Positions 19,231-35,581 of a DNA stretch of 38,113 nt are shown piece after piece (position 1 is the stretch's first letter; every line of letters begins with the position of its first letter). Location: positions 1-38,113 of the forward strand of contig CAZZIO010000024.1 in the NCBI GenBank assembly GCA_964654465.1, written 5' to 3'. Source of the stretch: an uncultured Dictyoglomota bacterium. Lineage in GTDB: Bacteria; Dictyoglomota; Dictyoglomia; Dictyoglomales; Dictyoglomaceae. The notes beneath the pieces were generated by a model. The model ran no database searches. It worked only from the letters and a program-made list of their open reading frames with translations, and was not told where the DNA came from. Made by a program: the position numbers and the translations under genes.

Positions 19231-19268
19231 TAAACAAAATAAAACTCTTAAAAGAGGTTTTGAGATTT

Positions 19269-20288
19269 ATGGGCAGTGTAAAGGATTTAATAATTTTGGA
19301 GAATCCATCCGAAAATTCCCTTGGTAGAGGTAGATTCATCTTTTCTGACAGATATTCTGTATTTGATTATGGAGAAATGCCAGACCTCATAGAAGATAAG
19401 GGTAAAGCTATATGTATAGTCACATCTTTCTTCTTTGAAAAATTAGAAAATCTGGGAATTAAAACCCATTATATAGGAGTAGTAGAAGAGGATAAAGTAA
19501 AATCCCTTTCTGAGCTAAAAAATACATCTAACATTCTTGAATTTAAAATGGTAAGAGTAGTGAAACCTGAATTAAAAGATAATATTTATGACTATTCTAT
19601 TTTCCAAAGCCTTAAAAATAATTTTCTCATTCCTTTAGAGGTCATATATAGAAACTCCCTTCCAGAAGGTTCTTCTGTATTTAGAAGATTAAAGGATGGA
19701 AGTTTAAAAATGGAAGATCTTGGACTTAACAAGATACCAAGACCAGGAGAAAAACTTGAAAAACCAATAGTAGACTTTTCCACAAAATTAGAGGTAAATG
19801 ATAGATATCTATCAAAAGAAGAAGCTCAAAAAATAAGTGGCCTCACTATGGAAGAATTTGAAAAACTTATAAATATTACCCTTTTTATAGATGACCTTAT
19901 AACTCATGAGGCAGAAAAAATAAGTTTAATAAACGAGGATGGAAAATTTGAATATGCTTTTGATGCAGAGAGAAATTTCATGGTAGTAGATGCCTTAGGA
20001 ACTCTCGACGAATGCAGATTTACCTATAATGGAATACCTATAAGTAAGGAAATAGCAAGAATATATTACAGAAAAACTGAATGGTATAAGGAAATAGAAG
20101 AAGCAAAAAAGAAAGACAGATTTAATTGGAAAAATATGGTAGGATCCCCACCAAATCTTCCAAAAGAACTTAAAGACCTTATATCCTCTATATACAAAGC
20201 TTATGCTAACGAAATAACCCAAAGAGAATGGTTTGATGCTCCTCCTATGAAAGATCTTTTAAATCGACTCCAAGAGCTTCTTCAATAG
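19269..20288 (+). CDS. purC: SAICAR synthetase, long (~340 aa) form
   Basis: GSVKD, FSDRYSVFD, IPLEVIYRN, FSTKLE..D, DGKFEYA, VDALGTLDECRF, SKE. ATG 19269 preferred over TTG 19260 from AGAGG spacing. Confidence 0.9.
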   Translation: MGSVKDLIILENPSENSLGRGRFIFSDRYSVFDYGEMPDLIEDKGKAICIVTSFFFEKLENLGIKTHYIGVVEEDKVKSLSELKNTSNILEFKMVRVVKPELKDNIYDYSIFQSLKNNFLIPLEVIYRNSLPEGSSVFRRLKDGSLKMEDLGLNKIPRPGEKLEKPIVDFSTKLEVNDRYLSKEEAQKISGLTMEEFEKLINITLFIDDLITHEAEKISLINEDGKFEYAFDAERNFMVVDALGTLDECRFTYNGIPISKEIARIYYRKTEWYKEIEEAKKKDRFNWKNMVGSPPNLPKELKDLISSIYKAYANEITQREWFDAPPMKDLLNRLQELLQ

Positions 20289-20371: not shown

Positions 20372-20630
20372 TTATCCACAACTGTGGATAACTTTGTGGA
20401 TAGGTTGTGGATAACTCTGTGGATAACTTTATAAATCTGTGGATAACTTTGTGGATAGAATATTAATTGTTGATTATGTGGAAAACTTTGGAAAACTTAT
20501 CCACAGCCAAAAAACATACATTTCTTAACTCCTTATAACTTATCCACAATATCCACACCCCTAACTACTACAACAAGGTTTTTTATTTTATAAAACACCC
20601 TTTGTATTTGTTACAGTAGGCTGTGGATAA
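20372..20630. other. DnaA-box cluster with unwinding element; probable oriC
   Basis: Perfect TTATCCACA at 20372, 20497, 20540; perfect TGTGGATAA at 20383, 20406, 20418, 20438, 20622; one-mismatch boxes at 20395, 20450, 20477, 20549; trio-like TAACTACTACAACAA at 20562-20576 followed by an AT-rich tract; intergenic. Confidence 0.85.
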
Positions 20631-20644
20631 AATCACGATGATGT

Positions 20645-20676
20645 AAAAAAGCCCCCCTATTTAGGGGGCTTTCTTT
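20645..20676. terminator. Intrinsic terminator; U6 tail on the minus strand, probably bidirectional
   Basis: AAAGCCCCC (20648-20656), 7-nt loop, GGGGGCTTT (20664-20672); A6 on the left, TTTCTTT on the right. Confidence 0.8.
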
Positions 20677-20711
20677 GAGAAAGGAAATTCTGACTGGGCT
20701 TTGTTTCTTTC
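20645..20711 (-). ncRNA. Candidate ~67-nt small RNA of unknown family
   Basis: Bounded by a near-consensus promoter (20746-20718) and a terminator; no AUG in the predicted transcript. Confidence 0.5.
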
Positions 20712-20717
20712 GAAAAA

Positions 20718-20746
20718 ATTATAACTTATTTTTTGAATTTATGCAA
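20718..20746 (-). promoter_or_regulatory. Sigma70 promoter pointing toward the DnaA-box cluster
   Basis: Minus strand TTGCAT (20746-20741), 17 nt spacer, TATAAT (20723-20718). Confidence 0.65.
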
Positions 20747-20868
20747 TAATATAAAAAAATTTTAATACTACTATAAGTAACACGAGTTATTTTAATAGAT
20801 CATATAAAAGAATAAAATTTTCATATCTATAAAAAAGTTTCAGAGAAAAACGATTTATTTTAAAAGTA

Positions 20869-20877
20869 TGATATAAT
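20869..20877 (+). promoter_or_regulatory. Extended -10 promoter element of the MgtC-family gene
   Basis: TGaTATAAT, separated from the ATG by 7 nt; no SD. Confidence 0.55.
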
Positions 20878-20884
20878 TTTTAAT

Positions 20885-21529
20885 ATGATCCAGGAATTTG
20901 AGATTATAAAAAGACTTATTTTTTCTTTAATACTATCTGGCATAATAGGATGGGAAAGGGAAAAGGAAGAGAAACCAGCTGGATTTAGAACACATATACT
21001 GGTTTCTCTGGGAGCTACTCTTTTTATGATTGTTTCAGCTTATGCTTTTCCAAATACTGATCCAACTCGTATAGCTGCTCAGGTGGTTACTGGTATAGGT
21101 TTTATAGGTGCAGGTACTATTTTAAGAAATGAACATTCTGTAAAAGGTTTAACAACAGCAGCAAGTATATGGGCTGTCTCAGGTATAGGTATGGCTGTTG
21201 GTGCAGGACTTTATTTTCCTGCTTTTTTTACTACTTTGTTTATATTAGCTGTTCTCATATTAGCAACAAAACTTGAGAAAGTATTTATAGGTTCCCATAG
21301 AGATTTAATATTAAAATGTAAAATAGAAGATAAGCCAGGGGTTATAGGAGAAATTGGAACTATTCTTGGGGAACTTAAGGTTAATATAAAACAAATAGGT
21401 TTAAACTCTATAAATGAAAATATAGCAGAATTAAATTTAATTTTGAGATTGCCATCTAAGATTAAAATGGAAGAGATTGTAGAAAAGCTTTCAAAATTAT
21501 CCTCAGTAAAAGAAATAGATATCATTTAG
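20885..21529 (+). CDS. MgtC/SapB family membrane protein with C-terminal ACT domain
   Basis: IGWERE..KPAGFRTH, DPTRIAAQVVTGIGFIGAG, GLTTAASIW; ACT-like DKPGVIGEIGTILG. Confidence 0.92.
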   Translation: MIQEFEIIKRLIFSLILSGIIGWEREKEEKPAGFRTHILVSLGATLFMIVSAYAFPNTDPTRIAAQVVTGIGFIGAGTILRNEHSVKGLTTAASIWAVSGIGMAVGAGLYFPAFFTTLFILAVLILATKLEKVFIGSHRDLILKCKIEDKPGVIGEIGTILGELKVNIKQIGLNSINENIAELNLILRLPSKIKMEEIVEKLSKLSSVKEIDII

Positions 21530-34618: not shown

Positions 34619-35581
34619 ATGAAGACAAAGAGGGCTTTTTTAATTGAGCCAAGAAAATTCGAGATTGATTACGTAGATGTGGAGCCAAAGAGAAATGAGG
34701 TATTGGTAAAAGTTGTCTCTTGTGGCCTTTGTAATTGGGAACTTAATCATTGGCATGGAAGACTCGGAACTTTTCCACAATCATTGGGGCACGAATGGGC
34801 AGGAATTGTGGTGGATGTTGGCCCTGATGTAAAAAATTTAAAGCCAGGAGATAAAGTAACCGCATTACCGGATGATCTTAGTGGTTTTTCACAATACACA
34901 GTAGTAAGTGAAAAAAATTGTATTAAGCTTCCTGATAATATAGATATTAAATATGCTCTTGGGGAACCACTAAAGTGTATTATTACCGTATTAAGGGCAG
35001 CTCGACCTGAGGTTGGAGATTATGGGATTGTTGTAGGATGTGGTTTTATGGGATTGTTGTGTATTCAAGCATTAAAAGGAAATACATTATCAGAACTTAT
35101 TGCTATTGATATTGACAAAAAGAAATTAGATATGGCCTTAGAGTTTGGTGCTACAAAGATAATTAATGCAAGAAAAGAAAATGTTGTAGAGAAAATACAA
35201 GATATAACGAAGGGACATATGGCCGATTTTGTAATAGAAGGTACTGGAAATCCAAATGTATTAAATATTTGTCAAAGATATTTGAAGACAGGGAGAGGAA
35301 GATTGATTCTAATGAGTTCTCATGAAACTGAGTGCGATAAATTTGATTTTAGAGAGGCAATAAAAAGGTCCATAGAGATAATAGTAGCTCATCCTTCTTA
35401 TTCTTTAGATCCATATGATGATTTAAGAAGGGCTGTAAATCTTTTAGAGAAGGGAACCTTTAATATAGAAAGATTGGTGACACATGAATTTTCTCTTGAT
35501 AGTATTCAAGAGGCTTTTGAAGCCTTAGAGAATAAACCTAAAGGGTATATTAAAGGCTTAGTAGTAATAAATGAGGTTTAA
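34619..35581 (+). CDS. Zn-dependent medium-chain (sugar/polyol-type) dehydrogenase
   Basis: CGLC, GHEWAG, EPL, GCGFMG Rossmann motif with DID; lacks the four-Cys structural zinc loop. Confidence 0.88.
   Translation: MKTKRAFLIEPRKFEIDYVDVEPKRNEVLVKVVSCGLCNWELNHWHGRLGTFPQSLGHEWAGIVVDVGPDVKNLKPGDKVTALPDDLSGFSQYTVVSEKNCIKLPDNIDIKYALGEPLKCIITVLRAARPEVGDYGIVVGCGFMGLLCIQALKGNTLSELIAIDIDKKKLDMALEFGATKIINARKENVVEKIQDITKGHMADFVIEGTGNPNVLNICQRYLKTGRGRLILMSSHETECDKFDFREAIKRSIEIIVAHPSYSLDPYDDLRRAVNLLEKGTFNIERLVTHEFSLDSIQEAFEALENKPKGYIKGLVVINEV

Follow-up and report, generated by a model that had tools for sequence, protein, structure and literature searches.

A putative trans-acting antisense small RNA beside a candidate replication origin in the bacterial family Dictyoglomaceae

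Introduction

In Rhizobiales, AbcR1 and AbcR2 silence the mRNAs of ATP-binding cassette (ABC) transporter binding proteins, using short seeds on many targets in an Hfq-dependent manner, and GcvB, whose G/U-rich seed pairs at or near ribosome-binding sites, likewise has many targets and needs Hfq. The products of oppA and dppA are family-5 solute-binding proteins (SBPs). MicC provokes cleavage of ompD mRNA from inside the coding sequence (CDS), with a pairing of ~12 nt and with Hfq and RNase E, while antisense RNAs of the classical long-duplex kind lie opposite their targets and are cut by RNase III. In Escherichia coli, mioC transcripts run into the replication origin (oriC) from a promoter that has a DnaA box. 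Two papers describe the enterobacterial GcvB (RF00022) as a repressor of mRNAs of Opp/Dpp-type periplasmic binding proteins (PMC9299463, PMC4474525). Here, we describe a probable trans-acting antisense small RNA (sRNA) that matches no Rfam family, predicted at positions 20645 to 20711 on the minus strand of a 38,113-nt stretch of DNA (the whole stretch analyzed, hereafter the window) from an uncultured bacterium of the Dictyoglomaceae (assembly GCA_964654465.1, contig CAZZIO010000024.1). At roughly even odds (a probability of about 0.5), we read this element as an independently transcribed RNA of ~67 nt that would pair in trans with the mRNA of an SBP and would likely lower the synthesis of the corresponding transporter.

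Among the papers listed in a search of one literature collection, judged by title and the opening of the abstract, none deals with small RNAs or oriC in Dictyoglomus. If confirmed, the element would give the Dictyoglomota a first riboregulator, and one whose predicted target can be tested.

Results

The window is contig C24 of a 1.91-Mb genome in 72 contigs (G000). On its minus strand, a -35-like hexamer, TTGCAT (20741 to 20746; 3 of 6 positions matching TTGACA), is followed after a 17-nt spacer (20740 to 20724) by a -10 hexamer, TATAAT (20718 to 20723), and the predicted sRNA would start at a G at 20711, 7 nt past the -10 hexamer, and would end at 20645 with an intrinsic terminator (20645 to 20675), composed of a hairpin and a U6 run at 20650 to 20645. 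The original prediction, made from the letters alone, had described the promoter as TTGCAT-N17-TATAAT, the RNA as AUG-free with a length of ~67 nt, and the terminator as lying 14 bp before the last DnaA box. All of this was recovered, with the promoter at 20746 to 20718, the box at 20622 to 20630, and neither AUG nor GUG or UUG in the 67-nt sequence. The RNA also contains a CU-rich segment, UUUCCUUUCUC, and, at 20673 to 20699, a single-stranded core that could serve as a seed and is antisense to an SBP mRNA. Folding of the 67-mer yields -21.6 kcal/mol (z -2.74; 2 of 200 shuffles do as well), and nearly all of this energy resides in the terminator. At 37 °C, a weak 5-bp helix touches the core region; in folds at 75 °C, the terminator alone stays folded, at -7.6 to -9.5 kcal/mol, and the core is unpaired in four of four lineages. 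For an alternative pairing that had been proposed, the 5' AAAGCCC does have the necessary complementarity to the terminator's 3' arm, yet this pairing is used in neither the minimum-free-energy nor the centroid structure. Moreover, the earlier failure to recognize a family was upheld, as the scan with Rfam release 15 gave 0 matches at gathering score in the whole window, and all 21 matches at E ≤ 10 between 20300 and 20900 were terminator-shaped and far below gathering scores. One of them, csRNA (RF02379; 20645 to 20738, minus strand), reached 28.5 bits (E 0.12), where the gathering score is 57, and was rejected as a family assignment, the hit apparently being driven by general shape.

The 601-nt intergenic sequence was used as a query against 41 genomes, in which the phylum is represented by 11. 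G000, G001, and G003 belong to the same genus, G005 to a sister genus, and five further genomes (g3) to another sister genus. Across the candidate, the query matched at 77% in G003, 75% in G001, and 71% in G005, and the order of purC (+), DnaA boxes, element (-), and an mgtC-like gene (+) is common to these three genomes and G000; in the five g3 genomes, it matched across the DnaA boxes only. For G002 (86% complete) and G004 (72%), the SBP site is present, and the RNA locus and the DnaA-box region were not found. In addition, a pattern scan of metagenomes returned seven contigs. Apart from one new lineage (m40/m41), these duplicate, exactly or nearly so, lineages that were already known; m40/m41 is the fifth of five distinct Dictyoglomaceae lineages, all of which carry the element.

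The conservation is unevenly distributed along the locus. In the alignment of the four genomes found by similarity rather than by pattern (A1), mean column identity is 73% over 209 columns and the sequence beside the core diverges, while the core itself is invariant at 24 of 25 positions. In these four genomes it reads CCCAGTCAGAATTTC[C/T]TTTCTCAAA, with a single transition as its sole variation, and 20674 to 20698 is constant in all lineages save 20683, where the sRNA has C or U. On the promoter side, the -35 hexamer is kept as TTGCAW or TTGTAT in all four aligned genomes and in m40/m41, with TATTGCA nearly invariant in the alignment, and TATAAT follows at 17-nt spacing in G000, m40/m41, G003, and G001, although the spacer sequence varies. 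G005 is without TATAAT at this place and has instead TTGATA-N17-TATACT ~20 nt further upstream. The hairpin is kept in all five lineages (-16.1 to -21.9 kcal/mol, z -2.9 to -5.0, in single-sequence folds), with a constant GCCCC/GGGGC center and outer pairs that vary (AAAG/CUUU, GGGAG/CUCCC, and AGAU/AUCU), and a U-run follows it in four of the five. RNAalifold, run on a MAFFT alignment (A2) in which the hairpins were misaligned, gave a meaningless 9-pair structure with zero compensatory pairs. The original prediction had looked to conservation of the promoter and of the anti-SD segment; the promoter is kept in four lineages, with a shift in G005, and the core at 24 of 25 positions. This pattern of a promoter, an invariant unpaired body, and a structure-conserved terminator supports a minus-strand small RNA gene, and its recurrence over five lineages favors the unannotated trans-acting sRNA that had been offered as one of two possibilities.

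A partner for the core emerged from the BLAST of the intergenic query, since 27 nt of that query, those of the core, also hit a second place in five genomes. In G000, positions 20673 to 20699 match C8:5205-5231 at 25 of 27 nt, inside a minus-strand open frame of 620 codons and ~750 nt into the coding region. Its predicted product is an extracellular solute-binding protein of family 5 (PF00496, E 3.4e-66), and the gene heads a five-gene Opp/Dpp-type ABC operon, in which two permease genes and two ATPase genes follow, on a contig separate from that of the sRNA; NCBIfam hits for this operon were all far below cutoffs. Because the target lies in a minus-strand gene and the + strand of the window is sense to the SBP gene, the sRNA, read from the minus strand, would be antisense to the SBP mRNA. 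When the whole genome was scanned for ungapped complements (Watson-Crick pair 1, G·U 0.5, mismatch -1), the SBP site scored 24.5, with the next best site at 15.5, and the duplex energy at the SBP site was -43.0 kcal/mol versus -28.2 kcal/mol for the best of 1914 translation-initiation regions. Moreover, matches to the motif number exactly two per genome in G000, G001, G003, and G005, namely, the origin-side locus and the SBP gene.

In these four genomes, the differences between the sRNA and its own target are compatible with G·U pairing except for one constant A·G mismatch; variation between C and U in the sRNA faces G, and so does variation between C and U in the mRNA. Synonymous change at the target site is mildly reduced versus the gene at large, with 3 of 8 degenerate codons varying at the site and 294 of 397 gene-wide (binomial P 0.03), and 3 positions vary within the 27 nt of the target, whereas the median for 527 windows of the gene is 9.

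The second-tier hits of the complement scan (C58:1900, C6:11496, C36:23772, and C64:47514) end, like the target, in ...GA(Y)TGGG(C/A). They may represent paralogous family-5 binding-protein genes and, with scores of ≤15.5, are unlikely to be targets of the sRNA. A further match, at C18:35476-35499 upstream of pyrE (start at 35500), occurs in G000 only and includes the base that mismatches the SBP site.

In the mechanism that we infer, from transcription and the ends of the RNA through pairing in vivo to the nuclease and the direction of regulation, the sRNA would be transcribed from a sigma-70-type promoter, starting at 20711, to the intrinsic terminator at 20645, at the edge of oriC, and its unstructured body of 26 to 27 nt would then pair in trans with the site in the SBP mRNA (C8, 5231 to 5205). 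The resulting duplex would be long and near-perfect, with one A·G mismatch and G·U wobbles, and should be stable at thermophilic temperature without Hfq. Cultured Dictyoglomus grows at ~70 to 80 °C. Cofolding with the cognate mRNA at 75 °C gave a net gain of -15.7 to -18.0 kcal/mol in four of four lineages, and a search of G000, whose genome is 99.97% complete, found no Hfq (PF17209). Since the site lies ~750 nt inside the CDS, occlusion of the ribosome-binding site is an unlikely mechanism; most likely, the duplex would mark the SBP mRNA for cleavage by RNase III, which G000 encodes, or for some other destabilization. As a result, the transporter operon would presumably be expressed at a lower level.

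Directly downstream of the sRNA terminator, a cluster of 12 DnaA boxes (≤1 mismatch; 20372 to 20630) forms a putative oriC. The whole window holds 32 such boxes versus 12.45 expected, a count that 0 of 100 shuffles reach, and none lies between 20631 and 21496; GC skew goes from negative to positive across the part of the window with the cluster. Within the cluster, a core resembling a basal unwinding system (BUS) lies on the + strand at 20540 to 20620, where tandem boxes (20540 to 20557) are followed by CCCC, by the central-A (NAN) triplets AAC TAC TAC AAC AAG (20563 to 20577), and by AT-rich DNA up to 20620. A BUS is defined in PMC8287927 as tandem DnaA boxes, a short GC spacer, at least three central-A triplets, and AT-rich DNA, and the putative oriC shows this layout as judged by eye rather than with the program of that paper's authors. 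The cluster recurs in the other genomes of the family, of which 10 were searched, with the box region not found in the incomplete G002 and G004. The g3 genomes bear a similar CCCCTACTACAAC stretch, with their box cluster between quite different genes and no comparable element after the boxes. Considering these features, the box cluster is a credible oriC, situated between purC and the mgtC-like gene, with dnaA elsewhere, on contig C29. The BUS layout implies that the candidate RNA points toward the end of oriC that would unwind and terminates immediately before reaching it.

The element is flanked on one side by purC (SAICAR synthetase; 19260 to 20288, + strand) and on the other by a gene whose product belongs to the MgtC family and carries an ACT domain (20885 to 21529, + strand). 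In simple scans of 3 kb, five terminator-like sites were obtained versus 1.4 expected, and the sRNA hairpin was scored as terminator-like on both strands. Its + strand face is weaker and is the first terminator that read-through from purC would meet; the scan listed no + strand terminator from the purC stop (20288) to the hairpin (20653 to 20668). Such read-through would therefore cross the entire DnaA-box cluster, and the hairpin could also stop it. At the start of the mgtC-like gene (20869 to 20887), TGATATAAT, an extended -10, ends 7 nt before the ATG, a spacing that suggests a leaderless mgtC-like mRNA, and a (T)GATATAAT-N7/8-ATG layout is likewise present at the pyrE genes of three g3 genomes.

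A palindrome, TAACACGAGTTA, lies at 20778 to 20789 and may be an operator-like site of an alpha-glucan regulon; its center is upstream of both the predicted sRNA start (by ~72 nt) and the mgtC-like ATG (by 95 nt). Identities as parS or as a LacI-type site were considered for it and set aside. Genome-wide, the motif TAACACGTGTTA (≤1 mismatch) is present at 12 sites. Nine are intergenic, although the rough intergenic set makes up ~6.5% of the genome. The eight other intergenic copies (C15:42913, C18:64659, C22:32715, C29:30721, C65:11166, C65:64378, C65:98071, and C65:98105) flank genes for two GH13 alpha-amylases, a PfkB kinase, an alpha-glucan phosphorylase, two GH57 enzymes, and a MalE-like binding protein; in addition, a 391-amino-acid gene without a Pfam match has two copies upstream, and a MalK-like ATPase gene adjoins one copy. 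The motif thus looks like the operator of a starch/maltodextrin regulon. At least four copies sit directly after a -10 hexamer, as seen by eye in the flanking sequence, and the window copy is directly preceded by a + strand TATAAG (20772 to 20777). Because TATAAG abuts the palindrome, the site may serve a distal mgtC-like promoter rather than the sRNA promoter, or both. The half-site TAAYACG keeps a constant distance to the -35 hexamer in four of four genomes, and a tie between alpha-glucan sensing and the sRNA is attractive but unproven.

Discussion

The case for the sRNA rests wholly on comparative sequence evidence from one bacterial family, and several observations weigh against the proposed pairing with the SBP mRNA or against the RNA gene itself. 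As to the match, the BLAST E value of the sRNA-SBP pair is only 0.004 (566 rough intergenic regions), and among 109,737 intergenic 27-mer windows, 156 loci have a partner with ≤2 mismatches; most of these are repeats, and 35 of the 156 are isolated with a single partner, corresponding to ~0.8% of non-overlapping 27-mers. Short matches of this type are thus not rare in G000, and the present one is unlikely by chance, though not overwhelmingly so. The A·G mismatch (window position 20689, opposite the first base of an Ala codon) is unchanged in RNA and target alike in four of four genomes, and a constant central mismatch is not explained by selection for maximal pairing; moreover, the substitutions relevant to pairing are of only three types, which is not enough for a covariation test. 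As to the RNA gene, the -35 hexamer is weak, and the promoter scan did not list the site because no more than 3 of the 6 positions agree with TTGACA. Shuffled sequence gives at least as many promoter-like matches as this AT-rich stretch itself (9 observed versus 16.3 expected), so that the promoter is credible only via its conservation. In G001, the hairpin is followed by UUCAUCUUC, without a clean U-run. The metagenomic sequences m36, m37, and m40/m41 were retrieved by a pattern that forces 21 core bases (22 positions) and are therefore uninformative on core conservation, and the five lineages, all from one family, are not independent. Finally, g3 has an SBP orthologue (retrieved in two of five genomes) yet no such RNA locus.

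The BLAST of the intergenic regions lists 74 other short intergenic-to-CDS matches, and matches between intergenic and other sequence in G000 most probably reflect shared ancestry rather than chance. Nevertheless, the invariant core of an independently defined RNA would rarely hit such a match, and would do so half as often in antisense orientation. A terminator-like hairpin on the antisense strand accompanies 3 of the 75 listed matches, the sRNA-SBP pair included, and in this pair the hairpin directly follows the matching block. Some of the isolated single-partner 27-mers, for instance, those at C20:9585, C15:37049, C32:37126, and C56:179, or of the listed intergenic-to-CDS matches could be further antisense RNA-target pairs or gene fragments.

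Four other explanations of the locus were weighed. An origin-proximal transcript with a local role, either modulating initiation in the manner of mioC or shielding oriC, with the SBP match as a relic or coincidence, seems unlikely to us. It would fit the terminator, which lies 14 bp from the last DnaA box and ~25 to 65 bp from the AT-rich stretch beside the triplets, the oriC-adjacent position kept in four genomes, and the two-strand terminator-like hairpin that could stop purC read-through, but it leaves unexplained both the invariant 25-nt non-hairpin core amid drifting flanks and the unique antisense match to the SBP gene. The stretch from 20631 to 21496 is also free of DnaA boxes, and g3 keeps the box cluster and the triplet region in another gene context without the element, so the origin works without it. 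The mioC-like transcript, which had been the other possibility in the original prediction, agrees with the locus in orientation but is not supported by its defining features, given the strong terminator before the boxes and a predicted promoter without a DnaA box; the g3 origins, too, lack the element. Equally, we regard as improbable that there is no RNA gene and that the conserved 25-bp block is a protein-binding site in DNA, with the hairpin as a bidirectional terminator or insulator. The transcript is so far a prediction, the -35 is weak, the block adjoins oriC, and its constant mismatch to the SBP gene shows a constraint beyond perfect pairing, all of which would suit a DNA site. However, the block is long, asymmetric, and unrepeated, is absent from g3 origins, and has just upstream of it -35 and -10 hexamers with a fixed 17-nt spacing in four lineages and a shifted promoter in the fifth; nor would a protein site be expected inside one CDS, antisense in register with a promoter and a terminator.

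The segment UUUCCUUUCUC itself had led to the proposal of an anti-Shine-Dalgarno (anti-SD) function, and a general sRNA that occludes the purine-rich ribosome-binding sites of several mRNAs would agree with a number of observations. The core pairs better with initiation regions than with internal CDS windows (-11.55 versus -10.11 kcal/mol, Mann-Whitney p 1.5e-33), GAGAAAGGAAA (≤1 mismatch) occurs 7 times in the window versus 2.8 expected, a perfect match of 14 nt covers the SD of pyrE in G000, and csRNA is the top Rfam hit, if a weak one. We nonetheless consider this function very unlikely. The excess at initiation regions is small and expected of any CU-rich sequence, none of the four other genomes of genera g1 and g2 examined (G001, G003, G004, and G005) retains the pyrE match, which is the best SD hit, CCU has become CUU in G001 and G005, the SD of the SBP gene is itself AGGAGGT, and the csRNA hit falls short of its gathering score; in addition, judging from the folds, an AU-rich pairing of 8 to 11 nt would be unstable at ~75 °C. 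Thus, of the anti-SD proposal, the segment stands but the mechanism is not singled out, the excess being generic, the pyrE hit unconserved, and the site in the SBP CDS dominant; this CDS, the likely target, was missed in the original prediction, which had named GAAAGGA-type SD sequences. A functionless fragment of the SBP gene inserted beside oriC is an extremely improbable explanation. Identity to the SBP gene does imply common origin or convergence, and in G001 and G005 the local alignment to that gene extends to 37 to 39 nt; yet similarity of the flanks past 26 to 27 nt is insignificant (flank scores as high as those observed arise in 31 to 497 of 500 shuffles), and a neutral piece of 27 nt should decay like its flanks over two genera, whereas 24 of 25 positions are invariant.

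A trans-acting antisense sRNA directed at the SBP mRNA remains our preferred reading. If true, it would exemplify RNA regulation at ~70 to 80 °C without Hfq, by way of a single long, near-perfect duplex within a CDS rather than a short seed. A far-reaching extension, which is speculative and in our view quite unlikely, is that the sRNA originated as a fragment of its own target gene captured in antisense and that, placed at the unwinding edge of oriC and beside an operator of the alpha-glucan (starch/maltodextrin) regulon, it links carbon-source sensing, and possibly origin-proximal gene dosage or replication state, to the shut-off of a competing Opp/Dpp-type transporter, with an Hfq-independent long duplex and a deliberately kept central mismatch; transcription toward the unwinding region might then feed back on initiation. 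Moreover, the clean annotation of an oriC that lies away from dnaA and the apparent alpha-glucan operator are both useful for annotating Dictyoglomaceae genomes.

The candidate can be compared with several described systems. The mioC promoter is resembled by a predicted promoter beside oriC that would fire toward the origin, but the candidate has a terminator (-20.7 kcal/mol) before the boxes and no DnaA box in its promoter. With csRNA, it shares a short length, a CU-rich stretch, and a terminator. As in MicC, the predicted target site lies far downstream of the start codon, where induced decay would be a natural mechanism, and, as in classical long-duplex antisense RNAs, the predicted duplex of ~26 bp would be long enough for RNase III, although the candidate is encoded on another contig than its target. 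AbcR1 and AbcR2 have the same kind of target and are likewise short RNAs with an exposed pairing region and a terminator, whereas the candidate's sequence is unrelated, as compared via the negative Rfam scans only. The likeness to GcvB lies in trans encoding, in a promoter of its own, here a predicted one, and an intrinsic terminator, and in a binding-protein mRNA as target, here a predicted one; the candidate differs in its C/U/A-rich core, in a pairing of 26 to 27 nt deep in one CDS, and in a genome in which Hfq was not found, and the Rfam scans of the window gave no match to the GcvB covariance model. Control of ABC-transporter binding proteins by such an sRNA would be a convergence on a familiar theme, the one represented by GcvB.

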